Position numbers and translations under genes: made by a program. Below, piece by piece: positions 9,867 through 43,089 of a DNA stretch of 64,000 bases (positions are counted from its first letter, which is position 1; every line of letters begins with the position of its first letter). A model generated the notes under the pieces. That model was not told the DNA's origin. It saw only the letters and a list, made by a program, of their open reading frames with translations, and did not search any database. The DNA is taken from positions 39,301 to 103,300 of the forward strand of contig JBBDZC010000012.1 in NCBI GenBank assembly GCA_040900375.1. Direction: 5' to 3'. Origin of the DNA: Candidatus Anderseniibacteriota bacterium. Its GTDB lineage: Bacteria; Patescibacteriota; Andersenbacteria; UBA10190.

Positions 9867-10625
9867 ATGGCAGACAATGTTATACCCACGACCCAATCCG
9901 GAAAACTACTTGGATTTGTTATTGTTGCCGGACTCTTTTATTTAGCGGGGCAGTATATTGCTTCAGCGCCCCAGCGTGCTTCTCAAGAGCAGGAAGCAGA
10001 ACGCCAAATTACCGTCTCGGGTCGCGGTGAAGTGCACAGTCGGCCTGACATCGCATATCTTACTTTAGGCGTCAATACGGGCGTGCGGCCATCGGCCGAA
10101 GAGGCATTAGGCCACTTAAGCGACCGCTTTACCGCCGTGGTCACGGCAGTGAAAGGCGCCGGGGTAGCCGAGGACGATATCACGACTACCAATGTATCCA
10201 TTAATCCGGTCTATGACTATGTCGAGGGCCGACAAATTCTTCGCGGCTTCGAAGCCCAGGAGTCTATCCGAGTAAAAATTCGCGAACTTAACCGCATTGG
10301 GGAAGTATTAACGCGGAGTACGATTGAAGGCGTTAATCAAGCTGGCGGAATTTCCTTTGCGATTGATGATGCCGAGGCGCTCCAACAAGAAGCGCAAGAA
10401 CAGGCGATCGCAGACGCCCAAGAAAAAGCGGAACAACTGGCGCGCGCGTTACAAGTCCGCTTAGGGTCCGTTAAATCTTTTTCCTCATCGCCCTCACCTC
10501 AAGACCCGCCAATTTTATACGAGCGAGCAGCCCTCGAGGCGGCGGGGAGTGCGGCTGCGCTTCCGGTGCCCCCAGGTTCGCAAGATATCGTGGCTCAAGT
10601 CACCATTACCTATGAACTACGCTAG
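9867..10625 (+). CDS. SIMPL/DUF541-family periplasmic protein
   Basis: N-terminal TM followed by ITVSGRGEVHSRPDIAYLTLGVNT...DITTTNVSINPVYDY..., characteristic of DUF541 (26-kDa periplasmic immunogenic protein family). Confidence 0.75.
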   Translation: MADNVIPTTQSGKLLGFVIVAGLFYLAGQYIASAPQRASQEQEAERQITVSGRGEVHSRPDIAYLTLGVNTGVRPSAEEALGHLSDRFTAVVTAVKGAGVAEDDITTTNVSINPVYDYVEGRQILRGFEAQESIRVKIRELNRIGEVLTRSTIEGVNQAGGISFAIDDAEALQQEAQEQAIADAQEKAEQLARALQVRLGSVKSFSSSPSPQDPPILYERAALEAAGSAAALPVPPGSQDIVAQVTITYELR

Positions 10626-10659
10626 TCGGTGGACGCCGTTCGAAACCTTTTCACCACTT

Positions 10660-10860
10660 AGTCCAAATAAAAGTCACCACGGGCATAAGCCCGTGGTATC
10701 GGGGGACTTTTGTCTGTGGCGTGCCGGCTCCGCCGGAACAGTGACAAAGCCCTTCATCCTCGGGCTTACGCCCGAGGTCTTACGGGCTCCAGATAAAGCT
10801 AATATGACAGGCAAGTAATGTACAAAAAAGGGTGCTAGTCCGTGGCACCCTAAAACTAAA
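10660..10860. repeat. Cluster of stable hairpins in a convergent intergenic region (REP-like)
   Basis: CCACGGGC-ataa-GCCCGTGG (about 10676-10695), CCGGC-tcc-GCCGG, CCTCGGGC-ttac-GCCCGAGG (about 10757-10776), AGGGTGC-tagtccgt-GGCACCCT (about 10831-10856). Confidence 0.5.
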
Positions 10861-10864
10861 TGAG

Positions 10865-11191
10865 CTATTGATTCTCTGCTTGTGGTTTCCATTGTCGGTA
10901 TTCTAGTTCACGCCGAAGTTCCTCAAGAAGTTCCTGCTCTGGTCGGTGAGCATTCTGCTGAAGAAATTGAGCGCATTTAAGCACTTTCGTTTTACCCTGC
11001 GGAAGAAGTTCACACCAGGCATCGAAAGTTTCTGCATTAATCTCTTCAATATCTTTTTCCATGCCATCCAGTAAAACAAGTGAAATTACTCTGCTCGTGC
11101 GTTTGTTTAGTTCAGTGAGCACTTCGTCTTGAGACAATCTAGCCGCAACACGAGCGACGTGAAGAGCTTGTCCCCAATACGCTTCAAACAT
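10865..11191 (-). CDS. Small hypothetical protein, possible HTH regulator of the divergent two-gene module
   Basis: 108 aa, low GC. ARVAARLSQDEVLTELNKRTSRVISL could form a helix-turn-helix. Divergent from the 11432 operon with a palindromic operator in between. Confidence 0.45.
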   Translation of the reverse strand: MFEAYWGQALHVARVAARLSQDEVLTELNKRTSRVISLVLLDGMEKDIEEINAETFDAWCELLPQGKTKVLKCAQFLQQNAHRPEQELLEELRRELEYRQWKPQAENQ

Positions 11192-11238
11192 AATTTATCC
11201 TTTCAAAAGAGCAGTTTGTTATCTATGTTGATCCGTTT

Positions 11239-11255
11239 TGTGATAGCTTATCACA
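11239..11255. promoter_or_regulatory. Perfect inverted repeat TGTGATA-gct-TATCACA in the divergent promoter region
   Basis: 7-bp arms separated by 3 nt, centred between the minus-strand 108-aa gene and the plus-strand ZnR-DUF4145 gene. Typical geometry of a dimeric repressor operator. Confidence 0.4.
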
Positions 11256-11431
11256 ATATTCAATTTTCATAGTTTCGCACTATAGACAGGATCAGAACCT
11301 TTTTCCAGAATACACCCGCCCAATTTTTTATCACCACCTTTGCGATACCAAATGCTTCCGACTAAGACGTTGGCTCCATTGTTGGTTCATGGACGGTGCC
11401 CTATAAGGCTGATATACTCCATAGTTAAACT

Positions 11432-12142
11432 ATGAGCATACTTCGTGATATTCAATTTAGGACAACTGATGGGAAGGGCGGCTACATAGCCCTTGATCGT
11501 TTTCCTGATTCTTGCCCAGCATGCGACCAGTCTATTGAGCCAGTCTTCGTTGATGCCTTCTCTAATTACACTGGAAGCATGGACGGTTTTCTGCAGGCAG
11601 TTTTTCGTTGCCCAAGACATAAGTGCGGGAGAATTTTCCTTGCGTATTATGTCGGTTCAAGAAGTATGCGCTCCGATTTAATGGAATTAAGCCAGATTGG
11701 CATTTTGACATCAGTGGAAGGTCGCTCTTTTGACCAGATAATCAGGGATATGTCAGAACGATTTACGGTTATATACCTTCAAGCCGAAATTGCGGAGCAT
11801 AATGGCTTAAAGGAGATATGTGGTCCAGGGTATAGAAAGGCACTTGAATTTTTGATTAAGGATTATTTGCTTCGGCAATGTGGAGGAGATGCACATAAAG
11901 AAGCCGCGGTAAAAAAGAAGAAGCTAGGAGCCGCCGTAAAAGACATTGACGATAGCAACATTCAGGCAACGGCAAAACGTGCTGCTTGGCTGGGAAATGA
12001 CGAAACGCACTACGAACGCAAATGGACCACTAAGGACCTGACTCACCTTAAAGACTTGATATCCTTAGTTGTGAACTGGATTGAGAACACAGAAAAAACT
12101 AAAAAATATGTGGAAGAAATGCCTGAAGAAGTAACTCCGTAG
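11432..12142 (+). CDS. Zinc-ribbon + DUF4145-like domain protein (candidate defence/abortive-infection component)
   Basis: Cys cluster CPAC...CPRHKC in the N-terminus. The C-terminal region (...YRKALEFLIKDYLL...RAAWLGNDETHYERKW) matches the DUF4145 pattern (R..GN...H). About 40% GC versus a flanking ~53%. Confidence 0.55.
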   Translation: MSILRDIQFRTTDGKGGYIALDRFPDSCPACDQSIEPVFVDAFSNYTGSMDGFLQAVFRCPRHKCGRIFLAYYVGSRSMRSDLMELSQIGILTSVEGRSFDQIIRDMSERFTVIYLQAEIAEHNGLKEICGPGYRKALEFLIKDYLLRQCGGDAHKEAAVKKKKLGAAVKDIDDSNIQATAKRAAWLGNDETHYERKWTTKDLTHLKDLISLVVNWIENTEKTKKYVEEMPEEVTP

Positions 12143-12143
12143 T

Positions 12144-12749
12144 ATGCCTGACGAAAAAATAAAAATATCCGAAAAAGACTTTGAGGAGTTCATGCAAAAG
12201 CAAGGTTCAAAGTTTTTTCAAATAGAATCGGATGCAATGGGTGCTTATGGGGATAAGCAAATGGAACTTTTCTACAAAATTCTTGATTTTACCTATAAAA
12301 CTCTGACGGTAATCGCCTTAGTGGCTGGTTTTGGATTTACCGGGTTAGATAAGGTGCACAGTATATTACTCTTCGTTTTGGGCGAGGGATTTCTTTTCGC
12401 TGCAATTATCTACGGGCTGTATTGGGTGCAAAAAGTTTATGAAAGCAACCTTGATGCGTTGGATAAAGCTAAGGTGCGAATCAAGGAAGGTTTTGCTGCT
12501 CGTAATGCTGCCTTCAGAAAAATCTACAACAGCTACTTAGAAAAGAAAGAGGTAGAAAAGGCTGATATGGAAGATTTAACGCAAAAGAATAATGATTTGC
12601 TTCAAGTGTTTGCGGGCAAAACAGGTGAAAATAACAAGCAAGAAAGGACCCCACTCAAGCCCATAATGATTTTGTTTATTGCAGGCTCAATCTTAATTTT
12701 ATTTTCCTTTCCTTTCATATGTACCTTCGTGTTCTTATCTAAAATCTAA
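12144..12749 (+). CDS. Three-TM membrane protein, translationally coupled to the DUF4145 gene (candidate effector)
   Basis: Starts 1 nt after the upstream stop. Two central TM helices, a long charged amphipathic region and a C-terminal TM. Very AT-rich (about 33% GC at the 5' end). Confidence 0.5.
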   Translation: MPDEKIKISEKDFEEFMQKQGSKFFQIESDAMGAYGDKQMELFYKILDFTYKTLTVIALVAGFGFTGLDKVHSILLFVLGEGFLFAAIIYGLYWVQKVYESNLDALDKAKVRIKEGFAARNAAFRKIYNSYLEKKEVEKADMEDLTQKNNDLLQVFAGKTGENNKQERTPLKPIMILFIAGSILILFSFPFICTFVFLSKI

Positions 12750-12758
12750 CACGATTTT

Positions 12759-13541
12759 TCAGCTCCGAATCATAGCGTCAAAAAAGGTTGGACCACCTTG
12801 TTTTGCTGATTCAGATTGCAAGCTAGCAAGGGTTGAAATCATTGCGCTATTCACCTCAAAAACAAAATCTTTACTTACCACCATTCGGTCATTAGCTAAG
12901 ACATTCAGCGCCCCGCTAACTGTGCCTTCGTGAATCAAGTTAATTTCAAGATTTTCAAACTCAATTGCTAGGCGGGCGATTCCCTTCCTAGCTACCACAA
13001 TAGGAAGGCGAGTCGTAAAATCATCTGCTCTACTCCCATTCTCGTTAATTTTGAAAAACTTCTTGAAATGCACAATACCATCACCCAAAGTAACGTAAAC
13101 CGCTTTAATTGCCACCGGCGCCTCGCTTTGGTTGTGAAAGGTAAATTCTAGGTGGATGCGAGTACCTGGAAGCTCCTGGCTCTTAATAACGCCCATAAAA
13201 GGACTAAGCGTTAAGAAAGACTGTTCAGTTGGACTATCATCTACCACGGGTGGCTTGTCTGAGGATGTAGTGCGCATAAGGTCTTGTATCTGTGCCACCA
13301 TGGTATCGTTGGCGCCGGATATTTGGTAAATGTTGAAGTTGGAGTTGTGAGTAGTATTGCCGACACCACCCTCAATATCCTTAATTGTCATTTTTTGCTT
13401 ATTTCTACTGGCAATTTCTTTATGCTCTTTAAAGTTATGGGAATTGTTCCGATTCCAAGTAAACGGAATAGACAATTTACCGACCAAATCTTTAAACCAA
13501 GATGATTCCATATCATCAGCATTTTGCTCTTTTTCCTGCAA
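12759..13541 (-). CDS. Hypothetical protein (island cargo), no recognised domain
   Basis: 260-aa ORF, low GC, convergent with the two-gene module. Ends about 130 nt from the 3' end of tRNA-Gln. Confidence 0.45.
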   Translation of the reverse strand: MQEKEQNADDMESSWFKDLVGKLSIPFTWNRNNSHNFKEHKEIASRNKQKMTIKDIEGGVGNTTHNSNFNIYQISGANDTMVAQIQDLMRTTSSDKPPVVDDSPTEQSFLTLSPFMGVIKSQELPGTRIHLEFTFHNQSEAPVAIKAVYVTLGDGIVHFKKFFKINENGSRADDFTTRLPIVVARKGIARLAIEFENLEINLIHEGTVSGALNVLANDRMVVSKDFVFEVNSAMISTLASLQSESAKQGGPTFFDAMIRS

Positions 13542-13677
13542 ATTTCAAGCAGGAAATGGGGGTTTTGAAGGCTAGGCTTGTAACTCTGTCATTGAAACGA
13601 GTTCTGCCAGTTGGCTTGAGGATAAAGGGGTCAAGTACAATTATTTCTGCATCTTGATCTAGCGACTATTGTGCGTG

Positions 13678-13748
13678 TTCCGGGACAGGGATTCGAACCC
13701 CAATTTTCAGGTTCAGAGCCTGACGTCCTGCCGTTAGACGATCCCGGA
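13678..13748 (-). tRNA. tRNA-Gln (anticodon CTG)
   Basis: Acceptor TCCGGGA/TCCCGGA, anticodon stem TCAGG/CCTGA with loop CTCTGAA, T-loop TTCGAAT. 71 nt. Confidence 0.85.
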
Positions 13749-13787: not shown

Positions 13788-14255
13788 ATGCAAATCTACA
13801 TTGGCGCTGACCACCGTGGACTGGCCCTAAAAGAGAGCCTCAAGAATTGGTTGCAGGAGGCAGGCCATGAGGTTACGGACGTCGGGCCCACGACAGTCAA
13901 TAAAGATGATGACTACCCGGATTATGGCATTCAAGTCGCACGGGCCGTTGGGGAGGCTCCCAAAGAGCGGCGGGGGATTGTTATTTGCGGTTCAGGGGTG
14001 GGGATGGCAGTCGTAGCTGATAAAGTCAAGGGGGTGCGGGCCGGCTTGATTCATGACCCGCGGATTGCCGAAGCCGCTCGCCGTGATGATAACATTAACG
14101 TATTGGCGCTTGGGGCAGATTTCGTGGATGAAGAACAGGCGCGGGAGGTAGTGTCCGCCTGGCTGACAACTGATTTTTCGGGTAAAGACCGGCACCAGCG
14201 CCGCCTTGATAAGATTCAGCGCTATGAGCATGAACACTCGTGCCCCTGTGCTTAA
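13788..14255 (+). CDS. rpiB: Ribose-5-phosphate isomerase B
   Basis: MQIYIGADHRGLALKE...GIVICGSGVGMAVVADKVKGVRA is typical of the RpiB/LacAB family. Confidence 0.9.
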   Translation: MQIYIGADHRGLALKESLKNWLQEAGHEVTDVGPTTVNKDDDYPDYGIQVARAVGEAPKERRGIVICGSGVGMAVVADKVKGVRAGLIHDPRIAEAARRDDNINVLALGADFVDEEQAREVVSAWLTTDFSGKDRHQRRLDKIQRYEHEHSCPCA

Positions 14256-24471: not shown

Positions 24472-25233
24472 ATGACTTTACCCTTACCTACCCGTGAAGC
24501 TCCACGGGCTCACGCCCGTGGCCTCTCCCGTCAAGGGACGCCGCCGCAGGCGGTGAGCGGAACCCCGCGAAGCCGAAGGCCCAGCTACCCCACTTCGCTC
24601 GCCGTTGGCGAGCTCCGCGGGGTACCCCATTCGCCTTCATCCACGGGCTCACGCCCGTGGCTTTCGGCGAAGTGGGGTAAACTTCCATCCGAGGCTAAGC
24701 GCGTCTTTACCGGACGCATTTTTAGTGTGTGGCAATGGGAACAGCAACTATATAACGGTAGTACGGCAATCTTTGAAGGGATTAGCCGCCCCGACTATGT
24801 TTGTGCTATTGGAATATTGCCTAATCAAAAACTCCTGTTAGTGGAAGATGAACAACCTGATCGTCCAGCCATCATCACGCCGGCAGGCGGTCAACTCGAG
24901 CCGGGTGAAGAACCAAGCGCGGGCGCAGGACGAGAATTCCGGGAAGAAACAGGCTATGAAGCCAGGCAGCTTGTACCCTGGTTTACGTATCAGCCAAATA
25001 GTAAATTATTTATGACGTGCCACTTCTTCATCGCCCGCCATCTTACAGCGCACGGTCAGACCGCGCTTGAAGCAGGGGAGCGCATCACGCTTAAGCAGTA
25101 CACTTTTGCGGAATTTGTCGCCCTTGGGAGCGACCCGGCTGTACGAGATGGAATGTTACGTATTAAGCTGCTTGAAGCCCAGCTTGATCCCCAAAAGAAA
25201 CAAGATCTCCACCACTTACTCTATGCCCGGTAG
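24472..25233 (+). CDS. NUDIX hydrolase (ADP-ribose pyrophosphatase-like); the first ~75 codons of the ORF are encoded by the hairpin-repeat element and the true start is uncertain
   Basis: NUDIX box GGQLEPGEEPSAGAGREFREETG. Conserved N-terminal strand GRIFSVWQWEQQ begins about nt 24700. The upstream in-frame sequence is Pro/Arg-rich low complexity derived from the repeats. Confidence 0.75.
   Translation: MTLPLPTREAPRAHARGLSRQGTPPQAVSGTPRSRRPSYPTSLAVGELRGVPHSPSSTGSRPWLSAKWGKLPSEAKRVFTGRIFSVWQWEQQLYNGSTAIFEGISRPDYVCAIGILPNQKLLLVEDEQPDRPAIITPAGGQLEPGEEPSAGAGREFREETGYEARQLVPWFTYQPNSKLFMTCHFFIARHLTAHGQTALEAGERITLKQYTFAEFVALGSDPAVRDGMLRIKLLEAQLDPQKKQDLHHLLYAR
24514..24661. repeat. Pair of identical 20-nt palindromic hairpins (CCACGGGCTCACGCCCGTGG) flanking a ~108-nt structured segment, within the 5' region of the NUDIX ORF
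   Basis: Exact copies at about 24514-24533 and 24642-24661. Between them, 13-nt complementary arms TACCCCACTTCGC / GCGAAGTGGGGTA. Same hairpin family as 10676 and 10757. Confidence 0.55.
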
Positions 25234-38745: not shown

Positions 38746-39917
38746 ACCTAGAGGGTAGATGAGAGCGTAGGAGAGAGCAACAGATCCAAGTCTTAAAAAA
38801 GTAGCTTGAAGAACTCTACTGTTTCTTTCTCGAGAGTGATGCAACATGAAGGTAGTAACCCAGAAGTCTGTCGGCAAACCGGGTAAGAAAAGTTTGTATA
38901 AAGACTCCTAGGTTCCCCGCTCATAGGCGGGGAGGTCGTATGCCTAGGATGCGCCCCGCTCCTTCAGACGGGGCTAGCTTGTTGGCACCCTACGTAGTAG
39001 GCATGCCGAGATAAAGAACACTGCACGTCTTCTTTAAGAAGACGCACATTGCCTAAAGCAAAAGCCCTGGGCAATAAGCACCCTCTTCATGGATTAAGGA
39101 GCTTTACTAAAGAACTTTCTAGTATAACTAGCCAAACAGAAAACGCAAGTCCGCTGCATTTCCTTACGTCGTACCCTAAAACTTAAAGAAAAAGCCGTGT
39201 AGTATGCGAGCACTCCTAGGGGGCAGTACCAGGATTGCGGACACATACCACACGGCATAGTCTCCTCTGTTCCGACAGAGAAGAAAGAACCCAGTGAGCT
39301 GGTCAGTCTCCAGCGTTAGCTGGTATGTAAGCCTAAGGGATAGCGGACCTCCTTGTGTGAGGACCTCCAGGCCTTCACGGCTACCTTTATGGCCTACTCA
39401 CTGGGTTACTCTGTTGGACTTGACGCAGATAAACTGCCGTCCAACTGATGAAAAAGAACACTATGATGACTCCGCGACCCCGCCTTTTTAAGAGAAAGGA
39501 GATGAGGCCGCGGAGCTAAAGACTTCTGATACCTTCTTAGTGACGAGGAGCACCTGGAGTCTAGTTACAGACATAGGTTCTTTATAACGTCGTGTGAGCA
39601 GTAGGATTCACGCGACATACTTAAACGTGCGCAAGACACGGTAAGTCGAAACTGACCGAGCTGTAGTTGCACGCAAGCTCCCTCCTCACCACTAAGAAGG
39701 TGTAGAAGTTTTTTAAGATGCTTTTCTCTTCTCAAGGTACGGCAATAACCATTTAGTATACTCTTCCGTGATAGTTTGTCAAGTTTTGTTTACATTTTCC
39801 TTGTACTATCTGATTCTTCTGCCAAGTAAAGCCGTTTTATTATAAAATATGTGTCAATTTTTACCGTCAATACTATGGATATTCTCAACAATTAAAAAGT
39901 AAGGCACAATAAAGGAG

Positions 39918-40553
39918 ATGAAGATTTGTGTTATTGGTAGTCCGAGTACGGGCAAGTCAGTATTTGCGCGGACGCTCTCGGCCGAGATGGGTAAACGAGG
40001 TATTAATTGTGAATTAGTCCAGGAATACGCCAGTGCCTATATCCAACAAGTGGGCGCGCCCGAGCAAGCCTGGGAACAGTTAGTGATTAGTATCGGCCAA
40101 TATTTGTCCGAGCAAAAAACCACTCGTGATCATATGGTTACCGATGCGGCGGCATTTGCTACCTATGTGTATGCCCAGCGAGCTTTGCCGAAGATGATTA
40201 ATTCACGGGTCTGGCCAAAGTATCGTCATTTACTCGATATGTTGCGGACGCTCGCCCGCATCTCGGCTGAATCGTACGATCTTATTTTCTTACTCACCCA
40301 CGTTTTTCTTCCCCGCCAAGATGGCGTGCGGCTCGAGACCCACCTTTCGTATGACGAATGCAAGGAAATCAATCGGGATATGGAGGTCTACTTAGAATCC
40401 GAGCGAGTAGCCTACCATCGGCTGAAAGCTAACTCTGCCAAAGCTTTGGGCACGGCCATACAGATTATTGAGCAGCGGCTCTTGATTCAATCGCCCCAAC
40501 CCAAGTCTCACAAAGAGAGCGACCGCCTGACCATTGGCATTCGGTCCCCATGA
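39918..40553 (+). CDS. P-loop NTPase, AAA_28/NadR-like kinase family
   Basis: MKICVIGSPSTGKSVFARTL Walker A at the N-terminus, about 210 aa, resembling the nicotinamide-riboside-kinase-like AAA_28 family. Confidence 0.55.
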   Translation: MKICVIGSPSTGKSVFARTLSAEMGKRGINCELVQEYASAYIQQVGAPEQAWEQLVISIGQYLSEQKTTRDHMVTDAAAFATYVYAQRALPKMINSRVWPKYRHLLDMLRTLARISAESYDLIFLLTHVFLPRQDGVRLETHLSYDECKEINRDMEVYLESERVAYHRLKANSAKALGTAIQIIEQRLLIQSPQPKSHKESDRLTIGIRSP

Positions 40554-41060
40554 CTAGGTCAGCACAATTAATGAGTGAGTATATAACCTTTTTGGTGTAT
40601 AGCTGGCAGCGGGGCTTCCTTAATGTAAAAGTCAGCAGGTAAAAAGCACCCAAGACTAGAGAGTGGAACCCCTTAGTCCAGCAAATGAGGCGTTTAGCAG
40701 CTATAGAAGAAGCCTCGGCGGCTGCGTGGTAGCCGGTTGCGGCTATAGCAGCGCATTTTATTTTTATTTGTCGAACCCTTTTATTTACCGCATCCCGCAG
40801 ACCCCTAGCCCAAAAAACGGCACTCTTTATTGGTGGTCTATATTACAAAAAGAAACTTCCTAATTGATAGCGCGCGACAGCGACACCCCCTACCCCCCAA
40901 AAAAATCAGGAGCCCGATAAGCGATTTACGCTTTTTTAGAGATATGGCCACATATACTTCGGTGTCCTCGAAGTAACACACCCTCTGCTTGACTATCCAA
41001 GACAGGCTTTTTCTTTACCGCTACTATAATAAGACTTGTACTAAGCAATATTATATTTTT

Positions 41061-41462
41061 ATGCATTCACCTACTCACTACGGTATTGAACTGGTTATTA
41101 ATGCGAGCGGTTGCGACCCATCACTCATGACGCGTGAGAAATTAGCAGTCTTCATTGAGCAATTATGTGAGAGAATTGACATGAAGCGCGCGCTCGAACC
41201 TTATTTCTGGGACGAGATTAATGGCGGTTCGACGCCTGAACCGCACTTAAAAGGAGTATCGGTTTTTCAGTTTATTGAAACGAGCAATATTGCCATTCAC
41301 GCGCTGACCATGCTCGAAGTGATTTTCCTTAATATTTTCTCTTGTAAGCCATTCGAGCAAAAAGCTGTGGAGAAATTCGTCAAGGAATATTTCAAAGCTC
41401 AACACGTAGAAAGTAAGTTGATTGAACGAACGTATGTCGCGCGCCTACGAGAAAAATCTTAA
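41061..41462 (+). CDS. S-adenosylmethionine decarboxylase-family (pyruvoyl-dependent decarboxylase-like) protein with non-canonical processing motif (the ORF opens at 40989)
   Basis: HYGIELVINASGCD...GVSVFQFIETSNIAIH aligns with small AdoMetDC proenzymes (G..vis.l.GCD...GVSGVVIISESHLTIH). It has T-S at the E-S cleavage site and lacks the FPE motif. Confidence 0.45.
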   Translation: MHSPTHYGIELVINASGCDPSLMTREKLAVFIEQLCERIDMKRALEPYFWDEINGGSTPEPHLKGVSVFQFIETSNIAIHALTMLEVIFLNIFSCKPFEQKAVEKFVKEYFKAQHVESKLIERTYVARLREKS

Positions 41463-42687
41463 ACTCGACTGGCGACTTTCGCCGGCTGATTTACACCAAC
41501 AGGCTTTAGCACAGCTTGCGGCAAGCGAATCAATTGTCCGATGCGTCTTTGGGACAGATACCTCAGAAGTCGGCTTGCTAGACATAGCTCTGCCCACACG
41601 AACGCCTTTTTCGTTCCAAAAACGTGCTATTGAAAACCAAGCCCAATTTAATGTGGCATACATCGTCCCCACTGGCGTCGGTGCTGCCCAGGGTGGGCAC
41701 GCTGGCGATGCAACACCGGTTCTGAAGGCCATTTCCAGTATTGCCGATACTGTCTTTACACATCCAAACGTGGTTAATGCCTCCGATGTAAATGAGATGC
41801 CCAATAATACTCTCTATGTAGAAGGAAGCCTACTCTCAGCGTTTCTAATGGGCACTATTGGCCTTATGCGACGCCGAGGTAATCGCGTCCTCGCACTTCT
41901 CGGTCAACACCACAGGCGATACGTTGAGGCTGCAATAAACACAATTAATGCCGCTCGTGCGACTTACGGCCTTGATTGCTTAACCTTAGCCATTGTTCCG
42001 CTCACCATGAAAGCTGATTGGTCGCCCTCTGGTCGGGCATCTGGAGAAATTACCGGGCTCGATAATGTCTGGCAGGAACTCAACAAGCACGAGGGAGAAT
42101 TTGATACTATTGCCATCACGTCGCCGATTACTATGAATCCGGAAGCACGTGACTTTTATCTCGAAGAAACAAAGGGGGAATCCGTAAATCCGTGGGGTGG
42201 TATCGAGGCACTACTCACACATGCTATTGCTATGAGGATGCAAGTCCCTGTTGCACACGCACCCATGATGGAATCACTAGAGGTAGAGGCACTTAATTAC
42301 GGCATTGTTGATGCCCGTGTGGCCGCCGAGATGATTTCACTTTCGTATTTACAGTGTGTTCTTAAGGGATTGCAGCGGGCCCCTGTCGTTGCAGACCCAG
42401 CTACGCCCCACAGTTTGACTGCCGCCGATGTTAATGCCTTAATAATTCCCCGTGGATGTTTTGGCATGCCAATTTACGCTGCACTGCACCAAGGTATTCG
42501 CGTTATCGCGGTAGCGGATAAAATATACGCGGAAGACCATACTGAGGTTATTCGTGCTCTACCCTGGCGGCCAGGTCAATACAGAGAAGTCAGCAATTAT
42601 TCTGAAGCCCTAGGCATCCTGGCTTGCATGAAAGCAGGTATAGTGCCTGAAGCTATCAGTCGTCCCTTGCAAACAATCTCACTCTAA
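41422..42687 (+). CDS. Conserved hypothetical protein (PTGVGAAQGGHAGDA motif), translationally overlapping the AdoMetDC-like gene
   Basis: 421-aa ORF overlapping the upstream stop by about 40 nt. No confidently recognised family. Confidence 0.45.
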   Translation: MNERMSRAYEKNLKLDWRLSPADLHQQALAQLAASESIVRCVFGTDTSEVGLLDIALPTRTPFSFQKRAIENQAQFNVAYIVPTGVGAAQGGHAGDATPVLKAISSIADTVFTHPNVVNASDVNEMPNNTLYVEGSLLSAFLMGTIGLMRRRGNRVLALLGQHHRRYVEAAINTINAARATYGLDCLTLAIVPLTMKADWSPSGRASGEITGLDNVWQELNKHEGEFDTIAITSPITMNPEARDFYLEETKGESVNPWGGIEALLTHAIAMRMQVPVAHAPMMESLEVEALNYGIVDARVAAEMISLSYLQCVLKGLQRAPVVADPATPHSLTAADVNALIIPRGCFGMPIYAALHQGIRVIAVADKIYAEDHTEVIRALPWRPGQYREVSNYSEALGILACMKAGIVPEAISRPLQTISL

Positions 42688-43013: not shown

Positions 43014-43089
43014 TGGTGCGCCCGGCAGGAATCGAACCTGCGACCGTTGGCTTAAAAGGCCACTGCTCTACCAATTGAGCTACGGGCGC
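43014..43089 (-). tRNA. tRNA-Lys (anticodon TTT), CCA encoded
   Basis: GCGCCCGTAGCTCAATTGGTAGAGCAGTGGCCTTTTAAGCCAACGGTCGCAGGTTCGATTCCTGCCGGGCGCACCA. Anticodon loop CTTTTAA. Confidence 0.85.

Follow-up and report, generated by a model that had tools for sequence, protein, structure and literature searches.

A putative defence islet beside tRNA-Gln in Candidatus Andersenbacteria: a RAZR-like zinc-ribbon/HEPN protein and a membrane protein of an undescribed family

The locus described here lies in a 64-kb stretch of a Candidatus Andersenbacteria genome (Candidate Phyla Radiation, CPR; contig JBBDZC010000012.1), analysed over its full length of 64,000 nucleotides and referred to below as the window. 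An AT-rich block at positions 10865-13676 (41.3% G+C, against 51.1% in the remainder of the window) holds four open reading frames (ORFs). A 108-aa ORF on the minus strand (10865-11191; MEX1997583.1, WEA04_02820, annotated at NCBI as "hypothetical protein") is divergent from a 236-aa ORF on the plus strand (11432-12142; WEA04_02825), which is followed on the same strand by a 201-aa ORF (12144-12749; WEA04_02830) for a membrane protein with three hydrophobic segments (3-TM, three transmembrane). A 250-aa ORF on the minus strand (12759-13511; WEA04_02835) is convergent with this pair; its NCBI start is at 13511, and a TTG at 13541 would extend it to a possible 260 aa. The right border is tRNA-Gln(CTG) (13677-13748, minus strand), whose 3' end faces the block. 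The placement at this tRNA and the four-ORF organisation had been described, with 260 aa for the last gene, in a first-pass annotation of the same DNA, and both are present as described. The 236-aa protein joins a zinc ribbon (ZnR) to a HEPN domain, as does RAZR, the ring-activated zinc-finger RNase (Nature 2026, PMC13017515) that was reported earlier as PD-T7-4 (Vassallo et al. 2022, PMC9519451). Probably the block is a small islet of defence genes built around a RAZR-like Zn-ribbon/HEPN RNase of abortive infection, with which a membrane protein from an undescribed, defence-operon-associated family is co-transcribed.

The zinc-ribbon domain of the 236-aa protein spans aa 1-92 (11432-11707, plus strand), with a Cys4 set and six predicted strands, and the DUF4145/HEPN domain spans aa 102-229 (11735-12118, plus strand) and is helical. 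Homologues were compared in two alignments, one of 44 CPR proteins and one of 20 sequences from CPR, Firmicutes phages and plasmids of Proteobacteria and Bacteroidota. The four cysteines (C28, C31, C60 and C65) are invariant in both and occur in 92/92 family loci, which bears out the N-terminal Cys4 zinc ribbon proposed from the window alone. An AlphaFold2 model made from the CPR alignment (predicted local distance difference test score, pLDDT, 91.5) has a six-stranded N-terminal domain (aa 5-91; pLDDT of this beta-rich part about 90) and a helical C-terminal domain (aa 102-229). Profile searches of the PDB gave weak matches of the N-terminal domain to the zinc ribbons of RPC10/RPB9 (E 1.8-5.9). 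The ribbon is the most variable part of the family, with a mean pairwise identity of 0.32/0.25 in comparison with 0.54/0.49 for the HEPN domain.

The C-terminal domain has a DUF4145-type HEPN fold, and its structural neighbours in a fold search include the HEPN toxins of type II/VII toxin-antitoxin (TA) systems 5yep, 7ae2 and 8xdj. A conserved motif, R183-AAWLGNDET-H193, is encoded at 11978-12010 and continues with Y (residues 184-198 read AAWLGNDETHYERKW); in the two alignments N189/D190/E191 and H193 do not vary, and conservation of R183 is at least 90%. A second block, G131-x-G-Y-R-K-A-L-E-F-L-x-K-D-Y, which includes R135, E139 and K143-D144, is highly conserved as well. Against the Pfam DUF4145 model (PF13643) the window protein scores 13.0 bits (E=0.11), below the gathering threshold of 23.1 bits, and two phage homologues, at 18-19 bits, also fall below it; plasmid homologues are annotated by PGAP as "DUF4145 domain-containing protein". 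Because its own Pfam score is sub-threshold, the assignment of the window protein is based on homologues and fold, and it is on these, not on Pfam, that the DUF4145-like domain of the first-pass annotation stands. The members in the streptococcal prophages Javan197 (locus L009, 3983-4666) and phiARI0460-1 (locus L010, 3947-4636) carry the motifs SRSVAWIGNDETH and ALASAYIGNDEGH, respectively; both retain GNDE(T/G)H-Y and have no Arg at the position of R183.

A total of 3,734 homologues of the 236-aa protein were found at E<=0.01, across phyla, on plasmids and in prophages. The protein matches phrog_1305 of the PHROGs database (E=5.7e-34), and 546 IMG/VR stretches encode a ZnR-HEPN relative; blastn with two family genes as queries matched nothing in 5,426 E. 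coli genomes. The gene stands in the lysogeny module of Streptococcus prophages, adjoining repressor and integrase, and on plasmids it neighbours ToxN/AbiQ (Vibrio) or CoiA (Pseudomonas). On the Chryseobacterium plasmid NZ_CP041688.1 (locus L013, 4968-8776) it overlaps the start of hsdR by 4 nt and follows a pair of genes for a CBASS-like nucleotidyltransferase and an S-4TM protein, inside a type I restriction-modification (R-M) cluster. CPR members are found beside a SMODS gene and a serine recombinase gene, beside a DpnI-like gene, or among housekeeping genes. One of them, P0016 (locus L002, 1-6521, from the 953-kb ENA sequence ERZ27236897), has a divergent SMODS-domain gene on one side and a DUF5677-like gene on the other; the gene for a large serine recombinase is a few kb away, and the whole is another small variable defence patch. 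A tight same-strand downstream ORF was found in 13/86 ZnR-HEPN loci and was missing in the other 73/86, and a 3-TM gene beside the ZnR-HEPN gene was found in 0/92. At family level ZnR-HEPN thus behaves as a mobile, overwhelmingly solo defence gene. In many of the IMG/VR loci (L179-L258, for example L212-L215, L227, L254 and L258) the gene lies 8-12 GC points below its own flanks, like the copy in the window, which suggests that it moves as an AT-rich cassette.

The 201-aa protein has hydrophobic segments at about residues 52-68, 72-96 and 171-198. Three segments are therefore present, as had been stated for a 3-TM protein, but only two pass a strict hydropathy threshold; the weaker one is the first, 52-68, with the motif AGFGFT. 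An AlphaFold2 model (pLDDT 88.6) consists of two helices of about 60 residues that form a hairpin, with TM1/TM2 as its hydrophobic tip, and a C-terminal TM helix. The fold search with this model returned generic coiled-coil and BAR-like matches only, and comparison with models of known membrane defence effectors (SLATT, S-4TM and similar) gave no match. A word-indexed search found a single homologue, 43% identical, which is encoded 4 nt after a 214-aa MutH/Sau3AI-family gene and not after a ZnR-HEPN gene (locus L006, 90-1341; Logan assembly of SRR28093593). When every protein was scored, 91 cluster representatives (50% identity) were obtained at E<=1e-3. In 34 relatives AGFGFT (TM1), GE (TM2) and G-x6-SF (TM3) are shared, and the invariant residues of the family are G62, G64, F65, F77, E81, G181 and S188.

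For the gene contexts of this family 80 metagenomic loci were fetched, 53 of which have enough upstream sequence and 48 of which were assessed downstream. In 38/53 loci, a count that includes redundant loci, the 3-TM start is preceded at no more than 25 nt by the end of an ORF on the same strand, as compared with a background of about 34% in the window; downstream, a tight gene occurs in 9/48 loci and a convergent gene in 19/48. At least 22 unrelated clusters are represented among the proteins encoded upstream. Their Pfam assignments are mostly to R-M and defence families: N6_N4 methylases (4), Trypsin_2 (4), HsdS (3), Mrr_cat (2) and NA-iREase1 (2), with MmeI, DUF4420 PD-(D/E)XK, HNH, MutH/Sau3AI, AAA_15/AAA_21 (OLD-like ATPase), S24 peptidase and CYTH as further partners, and RuvB-like AAA proteins are also among them. 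In ORMF012027445.1 (locus L137, 2640-7692) the 3-TM gene stands between hsdS (444 aa) and hsdR (1044 aa), with overlaps of 4 and 13 nt. Members of this undescribed family mostly close R-M or defence operons and are habitually coupled to the defence gene before them, whichever it is. Together with the prophage lysogeny modules and R-M clusters that house relatives of the 236-aa gene, these neighbourhoods agree with the defence-type cargo assigned to the block by the first-pass annotation. The claim that it holds only lineage-orphan genes was wrong for three of the four, since homologues were found for the 236-, 201- and 250-aa proteins. In locus L013 and locus L137 the two island gene families are R-M-embedded independently of each other.

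The stop codon of the 236-aa gene, TAG (12140-12142), is separated by a single T from the ATG of the 201-aa gene (12144). The 1-nt gap from which translational coupling had been deduced is real, but it is unremarkable in this window, in which 34% of same-strand neighbours lie 25 nt or less apart. No ZnR-HEPN gene was found in the 80 3-TM loci; with 0/92 in the reverse direction, the ZnR-HEPN/3-TM pairing is unique to this window. A 12-nt direct repeat, ATGCCTGA(A/C)GAA, occurs across the junction at 12119-12130 and 12144-12155 (offset 25 nt), where it encodes the conserved C-terminal 'MPEE' of ZnR-HEPN and then 'MPDE', with which the 3-TM protein begins; chance, or a recombination scar left when the two cassettes were joined, could account for it.

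The 250-aa protein has five relatives, to which its C-terminal ~155 aa are 54-59% identical. An N-terminal HNH_2 nuclease domain is fused to this part in three of the five (P0124, P0126 and P0127) and is missing in P0125, in P0128 and in the window copy; the ~155-aa C-terminal domain itself is without a family assignment. The relatives are encoded in variable regions near genes for Fic and HATPase/DUF4325 proteins and near an insertion sequence element.

The 108-aa protein is a singleton: it had no match in Pfam (E<=1), NCBIfam, PADLOC, PHROGs or PDB sequences, and tblastn of plasmids, phages and all fetched loci gave none. A possible helix-turn-helix had been attributed to it, for which none of the tools (Pfam, NCBIfam, PDB sequences) gives a match. 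In the promoter region that it shares with the ZnR-HEPN gene lies a perfect palindrome, TTGTGATA-GCT-TATCACAA (11238-11256), which is upstream of both start codons, by 47 nt for the 108-aa gene and by about 176 nt for the 236-aa gene. The palindrome had been noted before and is slightly longer than stated then, but perfect palindromes with 8-nt arms are not statistically exceptional in the window (21 observed against about 7.5 expected). A promoter-like site on the minus strand (11307 to 11279) precedes it relative to the 108-aa gene, and a terminator-like hairpin with a T-run, read by inspection, follows on the same strand (10850 to 10824), 14 nt past the 108-aa stop. With these two features a local, autoregulated small regulator is plausible but unproven, and the palindrome is a candidate autoregulatory operator.

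Beyond this gene, at the left border of the block, lie two copies of a GC-rich, host-like hairpin repeat, CNCGGGCNTANGCCCGNG (10676-10697 and 10758-10777). The hairpin recurs at 24502-24521 and 24641-24660, giving four matches in the window where 0.29 are expected, and it was therefore rejected as the mark of an island border, the role in which the first-pass annotation had cited it; it is a repeat of this genome. The consensus CC[AT]CGGGC-N4-GCCCG[TA]GG is perfect at two unrelated intergenic or 5' regions, which have in common also a module of about 30 nt, CCTTCATCCNCGGGCTNACGCCCGNGG. Hairpins and module look like a small family of repeats of this genome, similar to repetitive extragenic palindromes or miniature inverted-repeat transposable elements (REP/MITE-like).

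The block is flanked by the SIMPL gene (9867-10625) and the RpiB gene (13788-14255), after which come epimerase and split-transketolase genes; the spacer between SIMPL and the island (10626-10864) is GC-rich and structured (fold z = -4.2). An Rfam scan of the window returned tRNAs only. The block is the lowest-GC 2.8-kb stretch within the window, with 0.37-0.46 G+C per 300-nt window and 0.50-0.58 in the flanks. Of 56 long ORFs, the three in the block that reach 150 aa rank lowest in third-codon-position G+C (GC3; 0.41-0.42, about 2 sd lower than the mean of 0.525; sd 0.054), and GC3 of the 108-aa ORF is 0.34. The AT-rich island that had been proposed is thereby borne out by GC windows, block GC and GC3 alike. 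A second low-GC stretch (0.41) is present at 39400-41500, about 0.3-1.5 kb from tRNA-Lys (43014-43089); the ORFs 40989-41462 and 41422-42687, which it contains, come next in the window in order of increasing GC3, and inspection by eye showed no integrase there.

The closest species representative is an Andersenbacteria metagenome-assembled genome (MAG; locus L014), whose RpiB is 61% identical. There tRNA-Gln(CTG) is found upstream of an RpiB-Rpe-Tkt operon, but the gene at a distance of 82 nt from the 3' end of the tRNA is that for an inorganic pyrophosphatase, and all four island genes are missing. The comparison with relatives at tRNA-Gln that was suggested together with the island hence came out in favour of it, with a housekeeping gene in place of the island genes, although the relative is distant and synteny of the left flank is lost. 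The atypical composition and the absence at the tRNA-Gln of the relative support an acquisition of the block at the 3' side of tRNA-Gln, and this support is moderate because of that distance and the unconserved left flank. No integrase was seen among the four ORFs in the ORF list and the domain searches, and a search for direct repeats of the tRNA 3' end gave an inverted match only (15 nt, 80%). Exact-protein look-ups of RpiB and SIMPL for an island-free variant gave only pieces from the same sample.

The joins between island and flanks rest on the MAG assembly. In the independent Logan assembly of SRR27977660 the region is split into contigs L260 (8230-10694), L261 (10769-13741; 2,973 bp) and L259 (from 13712), so that the island is a separate contig, the sequence of which is identical to the window. 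The breaks fall at tRNA-Arg (start of L260), in the hairpin cluster and within tRNA-Gln, where 30 nt are common to L261 and L259, and the left end of L261 lies inside the genome's own hairpin repeat. As the breaks coincide with repeats, they are expected assembler behaviour and no sign of an island-free variant.

The first-pass annotation recognised no named defence system in the block; a Zn ribbon with a DUF4145/HEPN domain is, however, the architecture of PD-T7-4/RAZR and also that of DS-38, a validated single-protein zinc-finger and HEPN defence system (DefensePredictor preprint, 10.1101/2025.01.08.631726). RAZR is a single gene for a Cys4 zinc ribbon and a DUF4145-HEPN domain, which acts by abortive infection with the HEPN domain as the effector and works alone in E. 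coli (PMC13017515). It oligomerises and assembles around ring-shaped phage proteins (portals, Gp77), upon which it becomes active and cleaves single-stranded RNA; it is non-toxic until triggered, and its defence needs R146 and H154 (R-x7-H) (PMC13017515). The zinc-finger domain is its most variable region and sets specificity, and the linker is said to be conserved (PMC13017515).

By this analogy the block would be an immobile islet lodged at the 3' side of tRNA-Gln. The variable Cys4 ribbon would be the sensor and would bind an oligomeric phage structural protein; binding would re-arrange the protein's own oligomer, so that the C-terminal DUF4145/HEPN domains form composite RNase sites, which would use R183, H193 and N189/D190/E191. 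RNA cleavage would then stop translation and abort the infection. The 201-aa protein, which is not the normal partner of the family, would most likely be co-transcribed with the RNase as a defence component that acts at the membrane, either independently or in an accessory role; the 250-aa gene encodes, without the HNH part, a domain that in other proteins is joined to HNH_2 nucleases, and the 108-aa gene with the palindrome may be a local autoregulated regulator.

Several points weigh against this reading. The spacing of the conserved Arg and His is R-x9-H (R183/H193) in the window protein and R-x7-H (R146/H154) in RAZR; the zinc-ribbon domain has about 92 aa with six predicted strands in comparison with about 65 aa, and is thus some 27 aa longer; and the linker between the domains is not conserved in the window family, whereas that of RAZR is said to be. 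The R-xx-W-x-GND motif is kept in 57/92 family loci and missing from 35/92, and these 35 include both streptococcal prophage homologues in the alignment, of which one is without any Arg in the motif. R183 may therefore be dispensable for catalysis, and its catalytic role may not be universal in the family. PADLOC v2.0.0, a check put forward with the first-pass annotation, was run on the proteins of the region and gave no match for the window protein, nor for three phage and three plasmid homologues, even at E<=10; PD-Lambda-5_A is in its library, while the presence of a PD-T7-4 model is unconfirmed. Searches of PDB sequences with two profiles and two fold searches likewise returned neither of the RAZR entries 9Y9C/9Y6U, whose presence in the libraries is unconfirmed. 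On account of these null results, the spacing, the longer ribbon and the unconserved linker, the 236-aa protein is filed as a distinct clade with RAZR architecture and not as a demonstrated RAZR orthologue, RAZR having been compared by its published description. RNase activity of the CPR members is predicted by analogy, and Zn-finger/HEPN proteins need not share a trigger mechanism, as DS-38 shows. Finally, the 1-nt junction and the coupling habit of the 3-TM family leave room for a true two-component system.

The first-pass annotation had in fact proposed a two-gene module of sensor and membrane effector as a candidate abortive infection (Abi) system. Taken as an obligate pair, the ZnR-DUF4145 protein would detect infection and switch on the 3-TM protein, to which it is translationally coupled, and damage to the membrane by the latter would kill the cell. 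The tight coupling of 3-TM genes to an upstream ORF (38/53 loci against about 34%) speaks for it as does the 1-nt junction, and upstream partners of defence type, from at least 22 unrelated clusters, are what one would see if interchangeable sensors made use of one common effector. Yet the 3-TM gene was seen in 0/92 ZnR-HEPN loci and the ZnR-HEPN gene in 0/80 3-TM loci, the former is mostly solo, and its architecture acts alone in E. coli with HEPN as the effector, which does not fit a sensor in a sensor and membrane-effector pair. Many 3-TM partners, moreover, are methylases, specificity subunits or complete nucleases rather than sensors, tight spacing is common in this genome, and the count of 38/53 includes redundant loci; the obligate module is considered unlikely. 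Alternatively, the 3-TM protein could be a second-line Abi effector, restrained by the defence enzyme encoded upstream (here the HEPN RNase, elsewhere R-M enzymes) and freed when a phage inhibits that enzyme, in the manner of PrrC, the ABC-ATPase-like "guarded" anticodon nuclease of the EcoprrI type I R-M operon. The 3-TM gene of L137, between hsdS and hsdR with overlapping junctions, holds what we take to be the position of PrrC in EcoprrI, the ZnR-HEPN gene has the same position in the Chryseobacterium type I R-M operon, and the 3-TM gene is usually operon-terminal behind variable partners. Trypsin-like proteases, S24 peptidase, CYTH and RuvB-like AAA proteins are, on the other hand, no obvious targets of anti-restriction, and R-M genes are so abundant in CPR genomes that part of the association could be background, which leaves a guard of this kind decidedly unlikely. 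A wider proposal is put forward tentatively and is doubtful on present evidence: the 201-aa family would be a new, fairly widespread family of defence membrane proteins, an interchangeable operon-terminal module for unrelated defence enzymes, from type I, II and IIL R-M components, Mrr, MutH-like and HNH nucleases to OLD-like ATPases, trypsin-like proteases and, in the window, the RAZR-like HEPN RNase. It might serve as a membrane-disrupting backup effector or guard that fires upon activation or inhibition of its partner, and the window would contain a hybrid two-layer system of RNase and membrane effector, of an undescribed kind.

Two further explanations were considered. The block might be cargo in decay, left from an integrative element or a prophage and now functionless, or an assembly chimera formed via the tRNA and the repeat, given that integrase and att-like direct repeat are both missing, the 250-aa gene lacks the HNH domain found in relatives and both borders are exact break points in the Logan assembly of SRR27977660. 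None of the four ORFs is disrupted, however, and the two larger families have kept all their invariant residues; the breaks fall at repeats (tRNAs, hairpins), with the 30-nt overlap of L261 and L259 on one side and the genome's own hairpin repeat at the start of L261 on the other; decay or chimerism is very improbable. A TA module, in which the HEPN RNase would be a toxin with the 108-aa or 201-aa protein as its antidote, on the pattern of HEPN-MNT pairs, would account for the HEPN toxins 5yep, 7ae2 and 8xdj among the structural neighbours, and the small divergent gene with its upstream palindrome does resemble an autoregulated antitoxin. But Pfam and NCBIfam found no MNT or known antitoxin domain, ZnR-HEPN is solo in nearly all 92 loci with no 108-aa homologue beside any family member, and RAZR is harmless until triggered; a TA module is hardly credible here. 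The RAZR-like islet with a co-transcribed, accessory membrane protein is accordingly the reading retained.

If the 236-aa protein acts like RAZR, the Zn-finger/HEPN strategy, in which a phage structural assembly is sensed directly and RNA is cleaved in response, reaches into the CPR. To our knowledge, hardly any defence system from the CPR has been put to the test, and little is known of CPR phages. The ZnR-HEPN family is large (more than 3,700 homologues, 546 viral stretches) and yet is missed by the PADLOC models, so that defence censuses probably under-count it. The 3-TM family is the more novel lead: its conserved membrane protein is encoded time and again at the end of gene sets for R-M and defence enzymes that are unrelated to one another. 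The family could represent a new type of modular effector or a guard, and it offers a testable handle on the wiring of first-line and abortive defences.

Among known systems RAZR is the closest in make-up. RAZR-Ec is a protein of 219 aa from E. coli UMB1727 (RRL46918.1), and RAZR and the window protein are each one polypeptide of about 220-240 aa with an N-terminal Cys4 ribbon and a C-terminal, divergent HEPN domain of the DUF4145 type (PMC9519451; PMC13017515); a conserved Arg and His in that domain may be a further common trait. HHpred places the ribbon of PD-T7-4 at residues 9-59 (TFIIS_C 14-55) and its DUF4145 domain at 87-175 (PMC9519451; PMC13017515); with the weak RPC10/RPB9 matches of the window family, both ribbons are RPB9/TFIIS-like. 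In both families the fold matches are of one kind, the zinc-finger domain is the most variable part, members occur on mobile elements and in prophages, and the gene is solo at family level. The window gene departs from the usual setting of RAZR in its CPR host, in the membrane protein gene 1 nt downstream and in the lack of an integrase in the island. DS-38 shares the make-up of a single protein with Zn-finger and HEPN domain; its Zn-finger is unlike that of PD-T7-4 (10.1101/2025.01.08.631726), from which it follows that there are several functional clades of one architecture, and, compared by description, the window family may be the DS-38 clade or a third one.

DUF4145 was described as a HEPN family fused to zinc ribbons, restriction endonucleases and helicases and found in operons with R-M, TerD and McrBC systems (Anantharaman et al. 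2013, PMC3710099). The family member in the type I R-M operon of L013 is like such R-M-embedded genes, whereas the R-M-fused forms are multidomain enzymes and unlike it; BxaP (PMC10799925), which has DUF4145 at the N-terminus followed by a HEAT-like domain, differs from the window protein, in which the domain is C-terminal. With the SLATT/2TM, S-4TM and KwaA effectors the 3-TM protein has in common that small multi-TM proteins stand beside a variable enzymatic partner in defence islands. PrrC of EcoprrI and the 3-TM protein, a membrane protein without a known domain, have no relation in sequence or fold. Both island gene families nevertheless occur between hsdS and hsdR in other genomes, as PrrC does, and this insertion in R-M operons suggests a backup role coupled to R-M.

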